This document shows positions 3-9,758 of a stretch of DNA of 64,000 nt, one piece after another. The notes under the pieces are model-generated. The model was not told the DNA's origin and did no database searches. It saw only the letters and a program-made list of their open reading frames with translations. The stretch is from a bacterium. Its GTDB lineage: Bacteria > Hinthialibacterota > Hinthialibacteria > Hinthialibacterales > Hinthialibacteraceae. The DNA lies in the NCBI GenBank assembly GCA_963662285.2, contig CAXXMV010000001.1:704001-768000 (forward strand), given 5' to 3'. Within the stretch, counting starts at the first letter, position 1. Every line of letters starts with the position of its first letter. A program made the translations under genes and the position numbers.

Positions 3-839
3 TTGCTGGCTGTGTTCGCTCCATTGCTCAGTTCGTATCGTTATGACGGGAGTATGCCTGACAGCGTTGAAGGCATGGCGCAGACTGATAATGCGGATCA
101 GTTGCGTCAGTCGTTGCAGGCGCCATCTGGTCAACACTACCTGGGGACGGATAAATTCGGACGCGACGTATTCACCCGCGTGCTTTACGGGGGACGCATC
201 TCGTTGTTCGTCGGTTTTATATCACAGGGTATCGCGTTGGCCATCGGGGTTCCGCTGGGTTGTCTGGCAGGTTATTTCCGCGGTAAGACCGATGCGGTGG
301 TTATGTGGCTGGTTAATGTGTTCTGGTCGTTTCCTTACTTGCTGCTGGTGCTGGCTATGAATATCGCCATGACCCATCTTATTGAATCATCTATTGTGCG
401 GGTGTTTATAGCGGTGGGGCTGGTCAGTTGGGTGTTGATCGCCCGTATTGTGCGCGGGCAGGTGATGTCGATTAAAGAAAACGCTTATGTGGAAGCGGCG
501 CGGGCTTTTGGATTTAATCCAGCGCGTATCATCATCCGGCATCTGTTGCCTAATATCATCACCCCTATCTTCGTAGTGGTGACGCTGGGATTCGCTGAAG
601 CTATCATCGCTGAAGCGGCGCTCAGTTTTCTCGGTTTGGGAGTTATGCCGCCTACGCCCAGCTGGGGACGCATGATCTATGAAGGGTATTTTTATATTTA
701 CACAGATATGGGGTGGTGGGTTGCAGTATTTCCAGGTTTTGCCATAATGGTTGCCGTTCTAGGTCTCAATTTATTGGGTGATGGGCTGCGCGATTATCTT
801 GATCCTCACCTGAAAGATGAACTGGAAGGCGTCAGGTGA
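3..839 (+). CDS. Peptide ABC transporter permease (OppC/DppC family), 5'-truncated by window edge
   Basis: HYLGTDKFGRDV motif, EAA loop (YVEAARAFG), LSFLGLG..PSWG and LGDGLRD motifs; several TM segments. Confidence 0.92.
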   Translation: MLAVFAPLLSSYRYDGSMPDSVEGMAQTDNADQLRQSLQAPSGQHYLGTDKFGRDVFTRVLYGGRISLFVGFISQGIALAIGVPLGCLAGYFRGKTDAVVMWLVNVFWSFPYLLLVLAMNIAMTHLIESSIVRVFIAVGLVSWVLIARIVRGQVMSIKENAYVEAARAFGFNPARIIIRHLLPNIITPIFVVVTLGFAEAIIAEAALSFLGLGVMPPTPSWGRMIYEGYFYIYTDMGWWVAVFPGFAIMVAVLGLNLLGDGLRDYLDPHLKDELEGVR

Positions 840-2416
840 TACGGCAATCAGAAGATATCCCATATAATTCCTTACGAGCAAAACCATTCTTAGCATATCT
901 GCGCGATCCTTACTTGTGGGTAATCGCGCTGGGGCAGATTGCCCTGAATATAGGCTTCATGGCCAGACGCACCCTGTGGCTGGATGAGGCCTATTCAGCC
1001 TTAATGGCGCGACGTTCGATCACTGAAATACATAAAGCATTGCGCTTCGACGCCGGACCGCCGCTGTATTACGACCTGCTGCATATATGGCGCATGATGG
1101 CGGGTGAATCGGAACTGGCCTTGCGTTCGCTATCGCTTTTATGCAGCGTTTTTGCGGTGATAGTAATTTATTATTGCGCGGCGCGGTTTTGGAATCGCCA
1201 TGCGGCGTTGCTGGCGGCCGGCCTGTTCGCCTTCACTCCATTGACTACTGCTTATATACATGAAGTACGCAATTACACCTTGCTGGCGGCGCTCAGCGCG
1301 GCATTGGTTCTGGTTTTGATGGAGCATTTAGATAAACCAGGGCGCTGGACTGTGATACTATGCGGCGTGATTGGATTGGGAGTGGTTTACACTCATAACC
1401 TGGGGTGGTTCCTGATGCCCGGCGTTTTGCTGTGCGTGTGGTTGTATGCTAAAAAAGTCAAGGATTTGACCGGACTACTGATTTGCGGGATTGGAGCGCT
1501 GGTTTTTTATGCTCCCTGGATTCCAACTTTATTGGCGCAGATGCGCAACAGCGAACGCTCCATCGCCTGGGCGGCGAATTTCTGGTCACCCTGGTCTTTG
1601 ATTTATACCTTCAGCGCCTATATCCCCGGTGGGATGACGCCATCATATCTTGACCTGCCTAGTTTCCCCAATGGGCTGCAAGCCATCAACGCTTTAATGT
1701 GGATTACCATATTCGCTTTAGCGTGCATCGCCGCATACCGCAAACGAGACAGGAAAGCGGCGCTTATATTAATCATCTTAGTCAGTGGATTGGTTGGTCC
1801 ATATTTATATTCATTAATTAGGACGCCGATCTATCTGGTAGGTAGAACCGATTATGGTTTATTGCCTTTTTGGTGTTTATTCACCGGATACGGTATATCA
1901 AAGATTCCCTGGCGCAGAGCGCAGATGGGCTTTGCTATAGTATTCCTGCTTCAGGCGGGTTATATCAATTATGAATTACTGACGCGGGATGATCCCCTAT
2001 CGGAACGCGATATCATTGTTTACCTGCAACGCAACACGCAACCAGGCGATGTTGTATTGTTCACCGGATTGACCCGGCCTTCGTTGGAGTATGCTTTAGA
2101 TGAGCAAGGCTTAAGATTTGAATCCTATCCACGTGACATGAACAAACATCTGGCTCATCTCAACGAGTCGTGGTACATGGAAAATATCGATTTAGATAAA
2201 GAGGCCGAATCTGTCTTAACAGATATCAGCCGGAATATTCCCGACGGCGCCAGTATTTGGGTGGCCGCCAGCCGCCGTCCTGTCAATGGGGCGCTATTAA
2301 CCCTGATTAAAGAAGAACGCCTGACGACCTTAGTTAAACGGATTTCCACGCCCAGTATGGGTTTACGGAAATTGAATGAACCTGTTTTTCTGGTTAAATT
2401 ACAAAAATTACGTTAA
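836..2416 (+). CDS. GT-C fold membrane glycosyltransferase (ArnT/PMT, GT39-like)
   Basis: LWLDEAYS followed by DAGPPLYY and EVRNY motifs, many TM helices; GTGA overlap with the upstream gene. Confidence 0.85.
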   Translation: MIRQSEDIPYNSLRAKPFLAYLRDPYLWVIALGQIALNIGFMARRTLWLDEAYSALMARRSITEIHKALRFDAGPPLYYDLLHIWRMMAGESELALRSLSLLCSVFAVIVIYYCAARFWNRHAALLAAGLFAFTPLTTAYIHEVRNYTLLAALSAALVLVLMEHLDKPGRWTVILCGVIGLGVVYTHNLGWFLMPGVLLCVWLYAKKVKDLTGLLICGIGALVFYAPWIPTLLAQMRNSERSIAWAANFWSPWSLIYTFSAYIPGGMTPSYLDLPSFPNGLQAINALMWITIFALACIAAYRKRDRKAALILIILVSGLVGPYLYSLIRTPIYLVGRTDYGLLPFWCLFTGYGISKIPWRRAQMGFAIVFLLQAGYINYELLTRDDPLSERDIIVYLQRNTQPGDVVLFTGLTRPSLEYALDEQGLRFESYPRDMNKHLAHLNESWYMENIDLDKEAESVLTDISRNIPDGASIWVAASRRPVNGALLTLIKEERLTTLVKRISTPSMGLRKLNEPVFLVKLQKLR

Positions 2417-2464
2417 ACCAGGCATTGATAGTATGATAAAGGTTATCTAGATATTGAGTGGCTT

Positions 2465-2505
2465 AATCAAGGGCTGGCCGCAATGCGGCCTTGCCCTTGG
2501 CACCC
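2465..2505 (+). repeat. REP-like palindrome, family A (TCAAGGGC...GCCCTTGGCACCC)
   Basis: Same arms recur at 30472-30506, 61228-61262 (-) and 61395-61427. Confidence 0.8.
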
Positions 2506-2559
2506 ATTCTTGGCGCACATACTTGGCGCCCGTTAATCCGGCGGCAAGGGCGGTCAACT

Positions 2560-4245
2560 ATGATGCATGAGATACCCAAACCAAGAGACGCACAGTTTAA
2601 CCGTATGGCGGAGATCACGGCGCTGGGCGTGGTATTGCTGCCAGTGATGCTATTGCGCGTCTTTTATATCAATGCATATCTTGAATTGATGCCTTACGCC
2701 ATCCATCCGTTGAACGACGCCCGCATGTATTGGGATCTGAGCCGCGCCATATTGCAGGATGGTTGGCTGCTGCCCGGTGAGGGACCTTTTTATCAGGCGC
2801 CATTGTATCCATACATGCTCGCCCTGCTGCAAAGTTTTGGGATTTACCAGATCGAATCGATCATACGGCTGCAAAGTTTGCTGGGGGTTATTACTACGCT
2901 TCAGGTTTATCTTTTAGCGCGCTTTATGCTGCCGATCAGATGGTCAACCGTTGCCGCCTTGTTATTCGGGCTTTGCCATTATCCGCTCTTTTTTGAAAGC
3001 AAGGTTCTGGCTGCCGCTCCGGGCATGGCGCTGTTTCTGCTTTTTGCTTTGAGTTACGCTTTATGGTTGAAGAAGCAGAAAACTATTTGGTTGATGAGCA
3101 GCGCGATGATATTCAGTCTTGCCGTATTGTGCCGCGCTAACCTGATATTCGCGCTGCCGTTTCTGTTGATTCACATTGCCGGGCCTTGGTCGAAATCTTT
3201 TGTTTTAAGAAATGAATGGCGGGGCGCTTTAACCAGAGTGATGATCTTTCTGGTTATTTTCATCGCCGGGATTCTGCCCGTTACGCTGCGCAATTATTTT
3301 GTTGGTGGAAGTTTGGTTCCCATCAGCGCCAACTCGGGCGTTACGCTTTATATGGGAACCAATAGCCAGGCTGCTGGAGGGCTGGCGCCGGTGACAGGTT
3401 TATCGAACGACATCGCTCAACAGAAAACCGGCAGCATCGCATTGGCTTCGAAATTGGCAGGGGAAGATTTTACGCCCGCTGAAGCGTCAAACTTCTGGGT
3501 GAAGAAAACCGTGAGATGGATTATGCATAACCCGGCGAGTTTTATTATTCTGGAAGGGAAAAAATTACTCTGGTCATTATACCAGGCGCCCCCGGCGGTA
3601 AATTATTCATCGCATTTCGAGGAGCAATGGATAGCCATACTGAGAGTGATGAAATGGTTTACCGGGATAACGGTGTGGGCTGGTTTGGTGGGATTGCCCT
3701 TATTGCTAATCAACGGCAACCGCAACAAGACATTCTTGCTCAGTTTGCTGGGCGGATATGTATTATTGTGCCTGGTGTTTTACGCTTCGGATCGTTTTCT
3801 ATGTTCAGCGCTTCCCTTTTTGGCTATAAGCGGCGCTTGCGCTGGAGAACAGTTTGTTAAAATGATTCATGACAAACGGGAATATTTTTCACTGCATAAA
3901 AAAGTAGTTTTATTGTTGACGTCTTGGATAATACTCTCAGCAGGTTTCGTGTTCAATCCAACCTTGAATTTTAATACGGAAAAAGAGATCGGAATGGGGT
4001 GGTATAATCTGGGAGCGTATTACGAAGGACGCAATAATCCAGTTGAAGCATTGCAGGCTTATGAGAATGCGATTGACTACCTGCCGGAGTTCCCTTCTCT
4101 TTTGCTGAACCTGGGCGTGTTGTACGGCCGTAATAATGACCTGGAGAGATCGACGGATTTATTCAAACGCGTATTGCAAATTGATCCCGCCAACCAGAAA
4201 GCCAAGGATAACCTGCGCATCAATCATAACCGCCAATACCGTTGA
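2560..4245 (+). CDS. GT-C membrane glycosyltransferase-like protein with C-terminal TPR repeats
   Basis: DARMY..FYQAPLYPY, RN..G..VPISANSG..LYMG motifs, TM helices, TPR helices (WYNLG, LLNLG). The track start at 2491 lies inside a repeat, so ATG 2560 is preferred. Confidence 0.8.
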   Translation: MMHEIPKPRDAQFNRMAEITALGVVLLPVMLLRVFYINAYLELMPYAIHPLNDARMYWDLSRAILQDGWLLPGEGPFYQAPLYPYMLALLQSFGIYQIESIIRLQSLLGVITTLQVYLLARFMLPIRWSTVAALLFGLCHYPLFFESKVLAAAPGMALFLLFALSYALWLKKQKTIWLMSSAMIFSLAVLCRANLIFALPFLLIHIAGPWSKSFVLRNEWRGALTRVMIFLVIFIAGILPVTLRNYFVGGSLVPISANSGVTLYMGTNSQAAGGLAPVTGLSNDIAQQKTGSIALASKLAGEDFTPAEASNFWVKKTVRWIMHNPASFIILEGKKLLWSLYQAPPAVNYSSHFEEQWIAILRVMKWFTGITVWAGLVGLPLLLINGNRNKTFLLSLLGGYVLLCLVFYASDRFLCSALPFLAISGACAGEQFVKMIHDKREYFSLHKKVVLLLTSWIILSAGFVFNPTLNFNTEKEIGMGWYNLGAYYEGRNNPVEALQAYENAIDYLPEFPSLLLNLGVLYGRNNDLERSTDLFKRVLQIDPANQKAKDNLRINHNRQYR

Positions 4246-4377
4246 TCAGGAAAACTCTCAGAAATTCCCCGATTTTTTTTATATTTTTTTTGAATTAAAA
4301 AATAAAACCGCTCGTATAAGTATGTGAATGCCATGGCAAGCAATTGAAAACTCAAGATGACATAGGAGGAAGAACCG

Positions 4378-4452
4378 ATGAGATTTCTAGCCGCTTTGCC
4401 AATAATAGGTTTCTACTTGTTTCTAATGGTTCAGATGTTGGCCATGCTGTAG
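4378..4452 (+). CDS. Small hydrophobic peptide, 24 aa (MRFLAALPIIGFYLFLMVQMLAML); candidate type I toxin or small membrane protein
   Basis: AGGAGG RBS at 4364-4369; clear paralogy to 6811-6894; single TM-length hydrophobic stretch. Confidence 0.75.
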   Translation: MRFLAALPIIGFYLFLMVQMLAML

Positions 4453-4485
4453 ATAGAATTACTTCACCAAGATCATTCTCAATAA

Positions 4486-4587
4486 TTATTGATTGCCCTT
4501 CTCATATAGTGTTAAAGGTTCATATCGAAAGTTCAAGGTCTAATTGTAAGGGCTTTGAACTTTCGTTGAATAAGGGGTTATCAATAA
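4486..4587. other. Long nested hairpin (structured RNA or terminator) between peptide gene and convergent CDS
   Basis: Inner stem CGAAAGTTCAAG(4526)/TTTGAACTTTCG(4565); outer stem TTATTGATTGCCCTT(4486)/AAGGGGTTATCAATAA(4587). Confidence 0.6.
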
Positions 4588-4640
4588 ACCTGTGATCAGG
4601 AATAATGCGCAGAAGAACAACAGGCATCGGCAGGGAACTA

Positions 4641-5345
4641 TTAGTTCGATATCCATAAACTTCTTAGGTAGAGGCTTATTATGGTTATAATACTTCCTGT
4701 TAAAAATGCAATAATCCAATTAATAATTTTTTCTCTGTTTCTTTTTTGATCTTTTTCAGTAATCTCTTTCTGCTCTTTATCACTGAATTCGATCAAAGCG
4801 TCGTTATGACTCAATACATCATCTAAAAAAGCAAGAAGTTCATTTACGATATCATAATATTGACTTACTTCATCTAATAAAGAATTCCCACTTTTTCCTA
4901 TATCTTTTCTTGTACGGATATCAGATATTTCCGTCGATATTTTTATTATTCTTGGTTTTGTAATTGTGTAGTAGGTAGGAATTACTGATTTGATACACTC
5001 ATTTGAATGAGGATTTATAATATCTAAAATTGATTCCTTGATTGTTACGCCCAACCAATCAGCTGCATCAAAGAAGGCACGATACAAATGGCCTATCACC
5101 TTTTCATATTGTTGTTCTATATATTTTTCTTTTTTTTCTTTTTCATCTAATCCTATTTCAACTGCTTTGGCTCGCATAAAATGATCGAAGGCATCTCTTT
5201 GCTCTAGAACAGGCTGTAGGAAATCATCAGTTTTAATCCCAAGCTCTTCTGCTCTGATGATCATTTTTCGTAGATTATGGTATAAATTAATTATCTTCAC
5301 CCATGGTACTTTAGACATTTCATTAGTACACATAAATACCCTCAT
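4641..5345 (-). CDS. Hypothetical helical protein with C-terminal TM helix
   Basis: 234-aa AT-rich ORF; QPVLEQRDAFDHFMRA and GHLYRAFFD motifs; hydrophobic C-terminus. Confidence 0.75.
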   Translation of the reverse strand: MRVFMCTNEMSKVPWVKIINLYHNLRKMIIRAEELGIKTDDFLQPVLEQRDAFDHFMRAKAVEIGLDEKEKKEKYIEQQYEKVIGHLYRAFFDAADWLGVTIKESILDIINPHSNECIKSVIPTYYTITKPRIIKISTEISDIRTRKDIGKSGNSLLDEVSQYYDIVNELLAFLDDVLSHNDALIEFSDKEQKEITEKDQKRNREKIINWIIAFLTGSIITIISLYLRSLWISN

Positions 5346-5390
5346 CCTTTTTAATTGATAAAAGAAGTTATGATTGGAAAGAATAATTAG

Positions 5391-5603
5391 TTATTTTGCA
5401 GCGAAAGCTTTGGAGATTTTCCTGCTATGCTCTTCGTATTCTTTGTCAGTAAAGAATCTTCCTGTTGAGACGCGTACGCTTCCTCGGAAACGTATACTTT
5501 CGCGGTTAGATATTACCCTAGTTTTTTCGGTTATTTCTGATGGTTTGTAATCTCTGTCTAACATGTCAACACTCTGCTTTTCTCCCATGTTACTCAACCC
5601 CAT
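5391..5603 (-). CDS. Small hypothetical protein (RGSVRxxxGxFxT motif)
   Basis: 70-aa ORF co-oriented and 45 bp upstream of 4641-5345; protein-like charged composition. Confidence 0.6.
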   Translation of the reverse strand: MGLSNMGEKQSVDMLDRDYKPSEITEKTRVISNRESIRFRGSVRVSTGRFFTDKEYEEHSRKISKAFAAK

Positions 5604-5798
5604 TTTCTTAGAAGATTAAAACCTCAAAAAGATATAGCCTTTAAATTCTTTGCTGAAATTTTAACCACAATGACACCCAGGATGTGTTTGGGACAAAAAA
5701 AGGTGATGAATACATGAAGCATATAAATACCCTAAAATCTGGATATACTGCTTCTTTACTCCGACAACCCTAATTTATACGTAAATAATCATATTAGA

Positions 5799-5827
5799 TA
5801 CATACCTCGCGCAGCCCTAGATGTCAA
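5799..5827 (-). promoter_or_regulatory. Putative sigma70 promoter for the 5603/5345 cassette
   Basis: Minus strand TTGACA-17bp-TATGTA; perfect -35, imperfect -10. Confidence 0.4.
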
Positions 5828-6004
5828 GCTCAAATATTGAAATTATTTATTTTTTCAATCCAGCCCGATGACAACTCAGACATGAGTCAAAATATATTTC
5901 AATTACTAAATATTAACATCAATAGACGACAATGATAAGGCAGCAAAGCATTTAGCCCTCAAGCAATCACAAAAGGAATCTTTCAATAGAGTATTCATAA
6001 AATC

Positions 6005-6448
6005 TCACTTCAAAAAATGCAGCAGCCGGATATACCAGGGCTTTTGATAAATCAACGCCTTTTCGATAGTTTTCGAGAACTGATCCGGATCCAATGGTCT
6101 TTGCAGAATATAGCGGATTCGATATTTACGGAAATGCTTCAAATCCTGCGGAGAACAATTGGAGGTAACGATAATTAACTGCGATGGCTTCATGACGTCT
6201 TTCATCAGCCAGGTGAGGTAGTTCATATCCAGGTTATCTTCGGCTTGACCAATGATGCCGAGATCGTATTTCTCATTCTCGGCGTGATCCCATCCATCCA
6301 TATCCGATTGGGAAAAGAACACCACCCACGAACGGTCGGCGGCGCAATCCTCCAGGAATGTTTTTTCCGAGTCGTTCAATCCGATTGCCAGGATGTGGAT
6401 ATTGAGATCCTTACGATTGATTTTCAAACGCTTCGACATTAAGCCCAC
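6005..6448 (-). CDS. Stand-alone atypical (pseudo) receiver-domain protein
   Basis: CheY-like pattern (YDLGIIG, LIIVTS, YILQRP) lacking the phospho-acceptor Asp and with R in place of the conserved K. Confidence 0.7.
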   Translation of the reverse strand: MGLMSKRLKINRKDLNIHILAIGLNDSEKTFLEDCAADRSWVVFFSQSDMDGWDHAENEKYDLGIIGQAEDNLDMNYLTWLMKDVMKPSQLIIVTSNCSPQDLKHFRKYRIRYILQRPLDPDQFSKTIEKALIYQKPWYIRLLHFLK

Positions 6449-6810
6449 CTCTTCAAACTATAATGGTATTTCAAATCATCACCATGCGGCGAGGGGACGC
6501 AAATCTTTTTTTCTTTGTCATACTCCATTCTAGCCTAATTCACGTATCTCAAGTATTAAAAAAAAACATACACTTCGTTTAACCGCGATAACTCTGCGAT
6601 TCAAAAATTTCATGTCACGCTAAACCAAGGCATTTTGAAAAAGTTAATGATATATGAGACGTGGAGACAAATGATTATATAAAATAATAATGTTTTTTAG
6701 CAAAAAGTTTTGACAAAATCAAATTTGAGCGATTTACTTATTTCAGGATCAACTTTACTAGCGCTAGCAAGCAATGTGAGGAGCAATTAAAATCACAGGA
6801 GGTTAAGACT

Positions 6811-6894
6811 ATGAAATTCGTTGCGTTTCTTCCGTTAATTGGCGTTTACGTTTTTCTTATGGTTCAACTCATCCAATTGCTAGCGCTGCTGTGA
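6811..6894 (+). CDS. Small hydrophobic peptide, 27 aa (MKFVAFLPLIGVYVFLMVQLIQLLALL); paralog of 4378-4452
   Basis: AGGAGG RBS at 6797-6802; TTGACA at 6710; downstream terminator; 16 identities with the 24-aa peptide. Confidence 0.78.
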   Translation: MKFVAFLPLIGVYVFLMVQLIQLLALL

Positions 6895-6937
6895 AGTGAA
6901 AAAACGTAATTAACATATATTTTTACTTAAAATACGG

Positions 6938-6990
6938 AAAAGGCTCTGTTCGGTTCGCTTTTTGGAGGTGAATCGGATATGCCTTTTTTC
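6938..6990 (+). terminator. Intrinsic terminator downstream of peptide gene 2
   Basis: AAAAGGC...TTCGGTTCGCTT/AGGTGAATCGGA...GCCTTTTTT; G-U pairs make the stem valid on the + strand. Confidence 0.65.
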
Positions 6991-7253
6991 GTGTTTTTGT
7001 TTCGGGGTAAAAGCGAATATCCCCCGATAATTATAATGATCGAATGATAAACTAATGTTCAATAGAATTTGGCCGATATTCATATTACTAACTGTTTTGA
7101 AATTCCGAGGCCATTTGCAAGAGTGAAAATGATATTGTTTTTAATCAATTATATCTATATAATACCCTCTTGCATGATGCTTTAGCGTATATTTCTTAAA
7201 GGTAATACTTAATCTCGGATAGAGATTTGCCGATACTCATTCAAGAGGAACCA

Positions 7254-9758
7254 ATGGCAACGCGAAAACCCAAAAAAAAGAAGAGTTCCAGCCCAAAAGC
7301 CTTCTGGTTTTGGAGGGTATCGGAGACTGTACATAAAATGAGCAATCAAACCCAGGACGCTGTCCATGAGGCATGGCAGAATCTTGAGGAAGAGCGCAAG
7401 CGGGAAATAATGTCGATTCCGCTGATCGCTTTTTCTCTTATTTGCTTTTTAGCCCTTTTTTCATATTCGACTTCAGATTTATTAACCTATTCGTCTGCGG
7501 ATGGGCAGGCGCAGCAGATTCATAACTGGATCGGCAAGCCGGGAGCATTTCTGTCGCATTGGATAATATCCCTGTTCGGCGCCTCTGGTTATTGCATCCC
7601 TGCTTTATTGATTTTGTGGGGCATAGATAGAATTCGCCAAGGCGCCAAGTCTCCTATCCGCAAAATCAGGATTATAGGCTGTGTAAGTTTATTAATCAGC
7701 GGATCAAGTTTGATGGGCCTGTTGACGGAGATGTTAAATTCATCTGTCGGGGGAGAGCGTATTTTTAATGTATGCGGCGCTATCGGATTTTTTCTGAGCC
7801 GTCGTTTGTTGGAATTTGGCAACGCCGGCGCTTTGATCACTAATATTACGCTGCTGGCAATATCCACGCTTATCTGTACGCCATTTTTATTCACTAATTT
7901 TTTCAAACGGATATCGGAATTTCTATTCTCATCGCGAAAAAATGATGAAGATATGGACCTTTGGGAAGGCGATGACGATGAAACGGAGGATCCATTCTGG
8001 GAACCAATCGTACCAGGTTTGAAATGTGATCAATACCGTTTAAAACCGTTGCGTGAAGTTGATGAAAGCAGGGCCTATCCTCCCGCCATAACTACCCATA
8101 AAAACGATTGGGAGTTCGAACCGTTTGAAGATGATGATGGCGGCCTGCCTCCGCTTGATGTCAGTAATATAATAGAAGTTGAACTGCCCGATGCGGAGAT
8201 CAGTGAACTGAATGATATTAGTGAACCAAAGATCGTAACTCAGGAAGCAGAGACATCGCGAGAGATCGATTTGGGAGTTAACCTGGTTTCAACTCCAAGC
8301 CATATTGATTATCAGATTCCCCCCATCACTTTATTGGAAAAACCTGTACAAACGCGTCCGGAAGTTGCGCGTGAGGAGATTATTTACAACTCCAAGATGC
8401 TGGAGCAAACCCTGAGTGATTTCAATATTCCCGTCAAAGTGGTCGAAGTCAATTATGGTCCGACTATTACCTGTTATGAGTTAGAACCGGCGCCGGGTAT
8501 TAAGATCAGCCGCATCGAGAATTTAGCCAATGATATTACCCGTTCGTTGAAAGCCGAAAATGTGCGCATCGTGGCGCCTATTCCTGGCAAGGGAACGGTG
8601 GGCGTAGAGGTTCCGAACCAGCATCGTTCGGATGTTTTACTGCGGGAAATGATCGCCTGCGAAAAGTATCATAATAAAAAATCCAAATTAAAAATCGGCT
8701 TGGGCAAGAAAATAAGCGGCGAGCCTTTTGTATTTGATCTGATAACAGCGCCGCATATTCTGGTAGCGGGAGCGACCGGATCAGGAAAATCGGTTTGCAT
8801 CAACACCATAATTACCTCCATACTCTATAATGCGGCGCCTCATGAAGTAAAACTGCTAATGATCGATCCCAAGCAGGTCGAACTGGCGGTATACAAAGAT
8901 ATCCCTCATCTTTTATCGCCAGTGGTGACTGATCCAATGAAAGCGGGCGCCGCGTTGCGCTGGGCGGTGGAAGAGATGGAACAGCGCTACCGTTATTTGA
9001 AAAAAGCAGGAGTCAGGAATCTGGTAGAGTTTAACAAGAAACGAATGTCGCAACAGAACGGAGAAAAAGAGGAGACTGCATCTTCTCTGATTCTGCCTGG
9101 CTTTCTACCTTATATTGTGATCATTATTGACGAACTGGCCGATTTGATGATGGTTGCCAGAGTAGATGTAGAAGCATCCATATCACGGCTGGCGGCTATG
9201 GCGCGCGCGGTCGGGATACATCTGGTGCTGGCTACGCAACGGCCTTCGGTGGATGTTCTGACTGGCGTTATAAAGAATAATTTCCCTTCGCGCATTGCGT
9301 TTCAAGTTTCTTCAGTAGCCGATTCGCGGACTATTCTGGATATGAAAGGCGCGGATACGCTAATGGGTCGCGGCGATATGCTGTTTACTCCCGGAGGCGC
9401 CGGAAAGCCGATACGCTTGCAATGTTCTTACATCTCCACTGAAGAATGCGAAGAAGTAACTGATTTCGTCAAACAACAGCAGAAAGTGGAATATGTACAG
9501 GAAGAGTTCATTCCGCTTGACAGCGGCGCGGGAGGTTCATCCAGCAGTGATGGAGGTTCCGCCGACGATGAACTTTATGATCAGGCCATATCATGCGTCT
9601 TGGATAATGATGCAGCCTCAACCTCACTGCTGCAACGCAGACTTAAGATAGGTTATGGACGCGCAGCGCGTCTGCTTGACCTGATGGAAGATAATGGCAT
9701 TGTGGGTCCGCCGCGAGGCAGCAAACCCCGTGAGATTGTATTGAATAAGATTAATTAG
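7254..9758 (+). CDS. ftsK: DNA translocase FtsK/SpoIIIE
   Basis: N-terminal TM domain, Walker A GATGSGKS, IIIDELADLMM, LATQRPS, gamma domain (STSLLQRRLKIGYGRAARL); ATG 7254 follows GAGGA. Confidence 0.97.
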   Translation: MATRKPKKKKSSSPKAFWFWRVSETVHKMSNQTQDAVHEAWQNLEEERKREIMSIPLIAFSLICFLALFSYSTSDLLTYSSADGQAQQIHNWIGKPGAFLSHWIISLFGASGYCIPALLILWGIDRIRQGAKSPIRKIRIIGCVSLLISGSSLMGLLTEMLNSSVGGERIFNVCGAIGFFLSRRLLEFGNAGALITNITLLAISTLICTPFLFTNFFKRISEFLFSSRKNDEDMDLWEGDDDETEDPFWEPIVPGLKCDQYRLKPLREVDESRAYPPAITTHKNDWEFEPFEDDDGGLPPLDVSNIIEVELPDAEISELNDISEPKIVTQEAETSREIDLGVNLVSTPSHIDYQIPPITLLEKPVQTRPEVAREEIIYNSKMLEQTLSDFNIPVKVVEVNYGPTITCYELEPAPGIKISRIENLANDITRSLKAENVRIVAPIPGKGTVGVEVPNQHRSDVLLREMIACEKYHNKKSKLKIGLGKKISGEPFVFDLITAPHILVAGATGSGKSVCINTIITSILYNAAPHEVKLLMIDPKQVELAVYKDIPHLLSPVVTDPMKAGAALRWAVEEMEQRYRYLKKAGVRNLVEFNKKRMSQQNGEKEETASSLILPGFLPYIVIIIDELADLMMVARVDVEASISRLAAMARAVGIHLVLATQRPSVDVLTGVIKNNFPSRIAFQVSSVADSRTILDMKGADTLMGRGDMLFTPGGAGKPIRLQCSYISTEECEEVTDFVKQQQKVEYVQEEFIPLDSGAGGSSSSDGGSADDELYDQAISCVLDNDAASTSLLQRRLKIGYGRAARLLDLMEDNGIVGPPRGSKPREIVLNKIN

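Follow-up and report, generated by a model that had tools for sequence, protein, structure and literature searches.

Two paralogous micro-genes encode a new, narrowly distributed family of predicted single-helix membrane peptides

The window considered here is a stretch of bacterial DNA of 64,000 nucleotides (positions 704001-768000 of contig C1 in genome G000, an assembly of 7.29 Mb on 8 contigs with 44% GC), and our subject is a pair of micro-genes within it, p1 and p2, whose hydrophobic products measure 24 and 27 amino acids (Table 1). Our findings indicate that both are almost certainly genuine genes for membrane peptides. Their frame, start codon, length and Shine-Dalgarno (SD) spacing are kept in other genera, and the ratio of non-synonymous to synonymous substitution rates (dN/dS) lies well below 1, which bears out the proposal, made in a preliminary description of the window, of a new family of small membrane proteins. 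Bacterial small membrane proteins are a kind already known; it is the sequence family that is new. As to their activity, we give about even chances to a clade-restricted, single-pass membrane micro-protein that would act by helix-helix binding, a reading that has to be weighed against several others, foremost the type I toxin that the preliminary description had put forward.

The two open reading frames (ORFs), which had been picked out from the letters of the window, are both present in the sequence. They have 13 of their first 19 residues in common, as had been claimed, and the accompanying argument that shared residues are spelled with different codons holds as well: across 19 codons, the proportion of synonymous differences (pS) is 0.84 and that of non-synonymous differences (pN) 0.19, with the synonymous rate (dS) saturated (all substitution counts are by Nei-Gojobori). 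When the whole 7.29 Mb genome was searched with tblastn, as had been suggested, the reciprocal matches of p1 and p2 reached E values of 1.3e-7 and 1.4e-7, which is similarity beyond chance, and the next best match stood at 0.16. Both this search and a six-frame motif scan tolerating up to 7 substitutions return p1 and p2 as the sole two copies in the genome. Among the 28 ORFs of 20-35 amino acids that follow a perfect AGGAGG in G000, p2 ranks first and p1 third in hydrophobicity. Outside the ORF, the likeness between the two is limited to the SD sequence and one 9-mer.

How widespread is the family? Searches of the 20 genomes of the same taxonomic family, with p2 as the initial query and profiles thereafter, retrieved full-length relatives in four of them (G000, G017, G006 and G019), with profile E values for their peptide genes of 3e-14 to 4e-11. 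G017, a member of another genus, has a tandem pair, MKFFATLPLIGIYVFFLVQMLAYLN (25 amino acids, G017A) and MKLIAFLPIIGLYVFLMVQVVQLLSLL (27 amino acids, G017B), 165 nt apart; G006 and G019, which belong to a third genus (g7), carry a single copy each, MYILPALPLIGFYLFLLIELLGYY and MYIIPALPLIGFYLYLLIELLGYCCG, of 24 and 26 amino acids. A pattern search with the peptide alignment yielded 13 matches, of which one, the G017 contig, was confirmed, and metagenome contigs, scanned with a degenerate DNA pattern, yielded four stretches, two of which (L051 and L053) are true members of the g7 type. The remaining two were set aside: the match in L052 is part of a frame of 205 residues or more that runs open to the end of the locus, and the motif in L050 has no start codon (a CTC comes right after a stop), being either a chance match or a decayed copy. 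Two stretches on viral contigs, both the same 53-amino-acid frame antisense inside a 240-amino-acid ORF, were judged to be chance matches. Elsewhere in the phylum set of 35 species genomes there is no credible match to the peptides; weak profile matches in G008, G003, G011, G007 and G001 (E 0.11-0.74), covering 8-14 residues, and one in G028 (E 0.026), inside an 820-amino-acid frame, were taken as noise. All six distinct loci keep the ATG, an SD sequence 7-8 nt upstream of it and an ORF length of 24-27 codons before the stop, and each is followed by a hairpin or terminator. Frame and ribosome-binding site, on whose conservation in related genomes the preliminary description had let its proposal hinge, are accordingly kept.

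The residues that persist are not simply hydrophobic ones. M1, L7, P8, I10, G11 and Y13 are invariant in six of six sequences, and the family architecture consists of an N-terminal Met-Lys/Arg (Met-Tyr in one genus), the stretch L7-P8-x-I10-G11-x-Y13, a Gln or Glu at position 19 and a hydrophobic C-terminus. Across the family, the grand average of hydropathy (GRAVY) ranges from 1.55 to 2.14, and no peptide has more than one charged residue (one Lys or Arg, or one Glu in g7). Two of the peptides, p2 and G017B, are 74% identical, both of 27 amino acids and with a QLLxLL end, while p1 and G017A occupy the same first position and have a C-terminal QMLA stretch in common; an FYLFL core is common to p1 and the g7 peptides. 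The C-termini read MLAML in p1, LLALL in p2 and LLSLL in G017B; those of G017A (AYLN) and of the g7 peptides (GYY and GYCCG) are weakly aromatic or polar. The invariant residues point to a specific packing of the predicted helix, beyond mere hydrophobicity.

The peptide family is, judging from its substitution pattern, under strong purifying selection across at least three genera. The comparison of p2 with G017B gives a pS of 0.57, a pN of 0.12 and a dN/dS of 0.12, and that of G006 with G019 a pS of 0.54, a pN of 0.07 and a dN/dS of 0.07. Between G006 and L053 (pS 0.32, pN 0.00), the 24 codons hold 6 synonymous and no non-synonymous changes; between p1 and G017A, pS is 0.97 and pN 0.23, with dS saturated. 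The dN/dS test that had been proposed for the family gives 0.07-0.12 wherever the ratio is computable, with synonymous sites near or at saturation. For the glycosyltransferase gene next to them, the same pairs of genomes give a pS of 0.30-0.73 and a pN of 0.08-0.34. Constraint on the peptides at the protein level is therefore no weaker than on this enzyme, and synonymous sites in the peptide genes show no slowing.

Databases contain next to nothing of this family. In Pfam, queried with four peptides up to an E value of 10, the only hit is a sub-threshold match of p2 to the HGWP repeat (E 0.12; 12.4 bits, where the cut-off is 21.9); NCBIfam, queried likewise, gave no match, and neither did PADLOC and PHROGs with three peptides. 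This agrees with the earlier statement that the sequences were not recognisable as a known toxin family. To search 5.8 billion predicted proteins with a profile, we aligned the longer open frames in which the peptides lie; the search led from 44 candidates to a single protein, P0001, an unnamed 24-amino-acid JGI protein identical to the G006 peptide; a search of all 1.84 billion cluster representatives again found P0001 alone. The description of p1 and p2 as unannotated is borne out in so far as neither was returned by the profile search of the 5.8-billion collection, which does contain larger proteins of the window (P0002 and P0013). Five 7-residue core strings of the peptides have no match in the full-text literature searched. 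The family is an evolution-backed example of genes that annotation pipelines miss, and it enlarges the repertoire of bacterial small membrane proteins by one new sequence family, from a phylum of which only 35 species genomes were searched; its practical weight is modest, given the narrow taxonomic range and an uncultured organism.

The genomic position of the family is fixed. The gene upstream of p1 (2491-4245) encodes a glycosyltransferase of GT-C type with Pfam matches to PMT_2 and to tetratricopeptide repeats (TPR). An ortholog is present in 19 of the 20 family genomes, and in four of these 19 a peptide gene lies no more than 1.5 kb downstream of it. In all four carrier genomes and in contig L053, the peptide gene comes directly after this PMT_2/TPR gene, at a distance of 108-132 nt from the upstream stop codon in G017 and G000. 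The term multicopy, used in the preliminary description, does not fit: there are one or two copies per genome, always in this one slot. The glycosyltransferase gene is the sole neighbour kept in every carrier, and the genes downstream vary, being TrkH-like in G017, of other types in G019, convergent after p1, and ftsK (which starts at 7227 in the window) after p2 and after the G006 gene. By eye, an ftsK-like frame also follows the glycosyltransferase ortholog in G005, G010, G018 and G002, as it does in G006; in G005 and G010, ftsK comes 115-200 nt after the glycosyltransferase gene, without a peptide gene.

How might so small a peptide act? We envision a scenario whereby the peptide inserts in the cytoplasmic membrane with its N-terminus inside, a topology predicted from composition, and whereby the conserved Pro/Gly/Tyr face, together with the buried Gln or Glu, would pack against another transmembrane helix. 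The partner helix might belong to the paralog, giving an A/B hetero-oligomer of first- and second-position peptides, or to a larger membrane protein. The peptide would then be a small modulatory or accessory subunit in the manner of AcrZ, KdpF, CydX or MgrB rather than a self-standing killer peptide. Copy number and position are stable across genera, canonical and well-spaced SD sequences are found in all loci, the peptides are at least as constrained at the protein level as the neighbouring enzyme, and there is no family-wide RNA lock; each of these findings favours a helix-helix binder. Small membrane proteins that have been characterised regulate larger membrane proteins (PMC11539335, PMC12648545), and those of the AcrZ, KdpF, CydX, MgrB and MgtS kind are described as acting by binding a larger membrane protein (PMC11539335, PMC7267776, PMC4325964). 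Like p1 and p2, the latter are single-helix proteins of fewer than 50 amino acids under purifying selection; there is no sequence similarity between p1 or p2 and these families.

Several observations weigh against such an accessory subunit. Fifteen of the 19 genomes with a glycosyltransferase ortholog have no peptide gene, so the family is dispensable, and unlike subunits of the AcrZ kind, the peptide is absent from most genomes that have its only conserved neighbour. The same slot carries type II toxin-antitoxin genes in G018, G002 and G013 and hence gathers addiction-type cargo. The genes for KdpF and CydX sit within the operon of their partner, whereas p1 and p2 form stand-alone units, in which they also differ from AcrZ, MgrB and MgtS. 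The p2 mRNA has a very strong predicted helix between its 5' and 3' parts, a feature found in some type I toxin mRNAs. Finally, the family occurs as a duplicated pair, unlike any of these five proteins; tandem duplication is unusual for accessory subunits, and tandem hydrophobic ORFs in one intergenic region are among the criteria described for new type I toxins (PMC2887945).

These last points lead to the reading that we regard as possible, if doubtful, namely that p1 and p2 are membrane-damaging type I toxins whose synthesis would be repressed by a small RNA, antisense or adjacent and not recognisable from the sequence, with the 5'-3' helix of p2 adding further repression. Ibs and ShoB of E. 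coli are examples of wholly hydrophobic toxins, and a translationally locked fold, by sequestration of the SD sequence or by a 5'-3' helix, is common, albeit not universal, in type I toxin mRNAs. The products of Ibs/Sib, ShoB/OhsC and zorO/zorP (29 amino acids) resemble p1 and p2 in being single hydrophobic helices of 19-29 amino acids with their own SD sequence. Among the features given for type I toxins are a length of fewer than 70 amino acids with a transmembrane region and a frequent tandem arrangement in one intergenic region (Fozo et al., 2010, PMC2887945). The peptides agree in size (24-27 amino acids) and in transmembrane hydrophobicity (GRAVY 1.55-2.14); each has one predicted hydrophobic helix, fewer than 30 residues and an intergenic transcription unit of its own. 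The two genes in G017, with their spacing of 165 nt, match the published search criterion of tandem ORFs (PMC2887945), and zorO/zorP are likewise duplicated in one intergenic region and missed by gene callers (PMC2887945). The patchy range (four carriers among the 20 family genomes, and what look like losses in G005 and G010) and the Gp49/HigB-like and helix-turn-helix (HTH) type II modules found in the same slot in G018, G002 and G013 also speak for a toxin.

The RNA evidence is divided. In p2, the predicted long-range helix has as its core a perfect 11-bp inverted repeat (6760-6770/6877-6887) and encloses the whole ORF and the SD sequence. Its duplex energy is -36.2 kcal/mol against -18.3 +/- 3.3 kcal/mol for shuffled sequences, 0 of 300 of which reach it, and the minimum-free-energy fold of 6755-6995 includes the helix (z = -4.58; 0 of 200 shuffles fold as well). 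At the other six loci, in contrast, a helix between the 5' untranslated region (UTR) and the 3' end of the ORF is no better than in shuffles (a fraction of 0.11-0.79 did as well), and we rejected it as a family trait, it being significant in one of seven loci. Hairpins that would bury the SD sequence are predicted in G006, L053 and G017A, and not in G019, p1, p2 or G017B. They are not significant (z -0.1 to -1.6, within a range of -1.6 to +1.5 for 5'UTR folds across the loci), although one compensatory pair supports the g7 hairpin, and they may lie upstream of the transcription start: a conserved block, TTTAAAAT, about 18 nt and CGTAT, precedes the first-position orthologs in G017, G006, G019 and L053 (p1 has part of it only), and if this block is the promoter, the 5' arm of the hairpin would be untranscribed. 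Pairing of the SD sequence with the 3'UTR is no better than in shuffles in seven of seven loci, so that a 3'UTR anti-SD was discarded as well.

No antisense promoter or terminator stands out; promoter-like sites number 13 in a consensus scan, where 12.4 are expected, and none lies on the opposite strand within p1 or p2. Synonymous sites in the ORF are no slower than in the neighbouring gene, and such free sites argue against a constrained, fully overlapping antisense RNA, an overlap with the UTR only remaining compatible. A polar, charged or aromatic C-terminal cluster is described as typical of type I toxins, if not universal, and their loci as lying far from flanking genes (PMC2887945); such a cluster is missing from p1, p2 and G017B, and the peptide genes of G000 and G017 are 108-132 nt, not at least 400 nt, from the gene upstream. 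The search up to E 10 gave no credible match to a Pfam or NCBIfam model. Compared with Ibs, ShoB and zorO, moreover, the likeness between p1 and p2 ends at the ORF apart from the SD sequence and the 9-mer, synonymous sites are free, there is no homology to a known family, and one or two copies hold a single slot that is stable across genera, with specific residues strongly conserved. The earlier claim of a type I toxin is neither supported nor refuted: no toxin model in Pfam or NCBIfam matches, no RNA lock is family-wide, and p1 and p2 lack a polar C-terminal cluster. Were toxicity to be shown, the peptides would be the founding members of a type I toxin family from an unstudied lineage; were they to bind the adjacent GT-C enzyme, a divisome protein or a transport protein, they would represent a new type of regulator.

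A more specific form of partnership is unlikely in our view, but deserves mention. By analogy, the A- and B-type peptides, alone or paired, could be mini-subunits of the upstream PMT_2/TPR glycosyltransferase, gained in one sub-clade as a bacterial counterpart of Ost4, the one-helix mini-subunit of the eukaryotic oligosaccharyltransferase and partner of a GT-C enzyme. What keeps this idea alive is that no neighbour other than the enzyme gene is shared by all carriers. Both Ost4 and the peptides are one-helix micro-proteins tied to a GT-C enzyme, in the present case by gene adjacency with a PMT_2 match only; this adjacency is explicable by vertical inheritance alone, and the enzyme does without a peptide gene in 15 of the 19 genomes that encode its ortholog.

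Three further explanations fare worse. A hydrophobic peptide that is exported or released, for example as a signal or as a surfactant-like or bacteriocin-like product, would be consistent with small leaderless products, two related peptides and putative promoters of their own, and yet we consider it very unlikely, given that no conserved transporter, immunity or modification genes lie alongside, that downstream neighbours differ, and that the sequences form a plain transmembrane helix with at most one charged residue, neither amphipathic nor cationic. A leader peptide or attenuator controlling ftsK is suggested by the order of p2 and the G006 gene, each followed by a terminator and then by ftsK on the same strand. 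We hold it to be extremely unlikely, because the downstream gene is not conserved (TrkH-like in G017, others in G019, convergent after p1), about 40-130 nt separate the stop from the terminator and the loci share no alternative pairing of the ORF end, the amino-acid sequence is under selection over the full length of the peptide, and in G005 and G010 ftsK follows the glycosyltransferase gene directly, with no peptide between them. That these very short ORFs arose by chance in a conserved non-coding RNA or regulatory DNA element is scarcely credible either, since changes are concentrated at synonymous sites (dN/dS 0.07-0.12), the flanks diverge across loci while ORF, ATG, SD spacing and stop position stay, and Rfam has no match within 3500-8000.

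The helix-binding micro-protein that we favour would have a history of duplication and loss. In a protein tree of the glycosyltransferase with 18 rows (G003, with a cut frame only, and G015, with no match, were left out), the four carriers form one weakly supported group of six genomes (80/86) with G005 and G010. One gain and two apparent losses, in G005 and G010, would be the simplest reading of this single gene tree. As read from the sequences, p1 and p2 stem from an old tandem duplication that is older than the split of G000 and G017, because the p1 type and the p2 type each have a counterpart in G017 (G017A and G017B). The first-position genes p1, G017A and g7 are linked to one another, p1 to g7 by the FYLFL core and G017A to g7 by the upstream TTTAAAAT block.

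The coordinates of the two units are collected in Table 1. Each gene has its own SD sequence and its own 3' hairpin or terminator, in line with the earlier view of two independent units; the AGGAGG 8 nt before each ATG was correctly described, and so was the hairpin after each ORF, which is followed by a T-run in p2 and by none in p1. As the p1 hairpin is placed between the convergent p1 and 234-amino-acid ORF, it may serve p1, the latter or both. The GCAAGCAAT motif, noted earlier before both ATGs, does occur there, but it is not a family motif: found only in the two G000 copies and absent upstream of four ortholog types, it was rejected as such. The consensus promoter scan takes spacers of 16-18 nt and requires an A at position 2 of the -10 hexamer; on account of the former it does not report the promoter-like signal of p1, and on account of the latter it does not report that of p2.

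Table 1. Features of the p1 and p2 units and of the DNA between them (position 1 is the first nucleotide of the window; nt, nucleotides; aa, amino acids).
Feature	Position	Strand	Description
p1	4378-4452	+	First-position, A type; 24-aa predicted single-helix membrane peptide MRFLAALPIIGFYLFLMVQMLAML; GRAVY 1.92
p2	6811-6894	+	Second-position, B type; 27-aa predicted single-helix membrane peptide MKFVAFLPLIGVYVFLMVQLIQLLALL; GRAVY 2.14
Promoter-like signal of p1	4290-4320	+	TTGAAT (4290-4295), 19-nt spacer, TATAAG (4315-4320); read from sequence, putative promoter role
Promoter-like signal of p2	6710-6738	+	TTGACA (6710-6715), 17-nt spacer, TTTACT (6733-6738); putative, read from sequence
GCAAGCAAT motif	4336-4344 (p1), 6767-6775 (p2)	+	42 and 44 nt before ATG
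Shine-Dalgarno AGGAGG of p1	4364-4369	+	8 nt before ATG
Shine-Dalgarno AGGAGG of p2	6797-6802	+	8 nt before ATG
3' hairpin region of p1	4486-4587	+	Perfect 11-bp stem 4526-4536/4555-4565 within outer arms 4486-4498/4575-4587; no U-run
Intrinsic terminator of p2	6936-6993	+	Compound hairpin (about 6936-6989), then T-run
5' arm of predicted long-range p2 mRNA helix	6756-6770	+	Pairs with 6877-6891 at 3' end of ORF; contains start of GCAAGCAAT
DNA separating p1 and p2 (G000 only)	4603-6700 (approximate)	-	About 2.2 kb inserted; ORFs of 234 aa (4641-5345), 70 aa (5391-5603) and 147 aa (6005-6448), all minus

Some features of the flanks may be recorded alongside. In all three g7-type loci (L013 1620-1690, L014 and L053), the block CCTCCCCCCAAG is invariant directly 5' of the terminator hairpin; the conserved CCTCCCCCC precedes the g7 terminator, and the 60 nt between the stop and this pre-terminator block are unconserved. 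Pairing of the block with the SD sequence is nowhere significant. In G000, a 15-nt direct repeat, ACCGTTGATCAGGAA at 4238-4252 and ACCTGTGATCAGGAA at 4588-4602 (13 of 15 positions identical), flanks the whole p1 unit, with the glycosyltransferase stop codon inside the first copy. By a rough estimate, about 0.09 such repeat pairs are expected by chance in a region of 431 nt, and the repeat could be a recombination scar. Further upstream, at 836-2416, lies the gene for a second PMT_2 protein, so that two genes for GT-C membrane glycosyltransferases stand in tandem over 836-4245, the second of them with C-terminal TPR repeats.

The DNA that separates p1 from p2 is heterogeneous in composition, with 31-36% GC over 4600-6000, where the 234- and 70-amino-acid ORFs lie, and about 44-46% around the 147-amino-acid ORF. 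None of the three ORFs has a Pfam match, and those of 4641-5603 have only weak matches in PADLOC and PHROGs (best E 0.014). The 234-amino-acid product has a hydrophobic C-terminal helix and 11 relatives among the 5.8 billion proteins, the window's own copy included, of which three are named, all as 'hypothetical protein'. In a comparison of three DNA runs with 4000-7300, a run from another sample covers 4727-5765 at about 99% identity on short contigs, and none covers the peptides. The 147-amino-acid ORF belongs to a paralog family present in 16 of the 20 family genomes, with three copies in G000. In both G017 and G005, the relatives closest to this ORF are on contigs other than that of the peptide locus.

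The slot after the PMT_2/TPR gene seems to be a hot spot for insertions. The type II toxin-antitoxin-like genes that it holds in G018, G002 and G013 (L030 2084-2793, L036 2075-2407 and L041 1996-2686) comprise, in G018 and G013, a Gp49/HigB-like gene together with an HTH gene and, in G002, an HTH_37 gene, with an HI1420-type antidote among the matches. Downstream of the peptide pair in G017 (L002 525-1128, minus strand), a gene resembling a K+ transporter of the TrkH/KtrB type was recognised by eye; it is split over frames of 140 and 84 amino acids, and the cause may be a frameshift, decay to a pseudogene or, the contig being of low coverage, an error of assembly.

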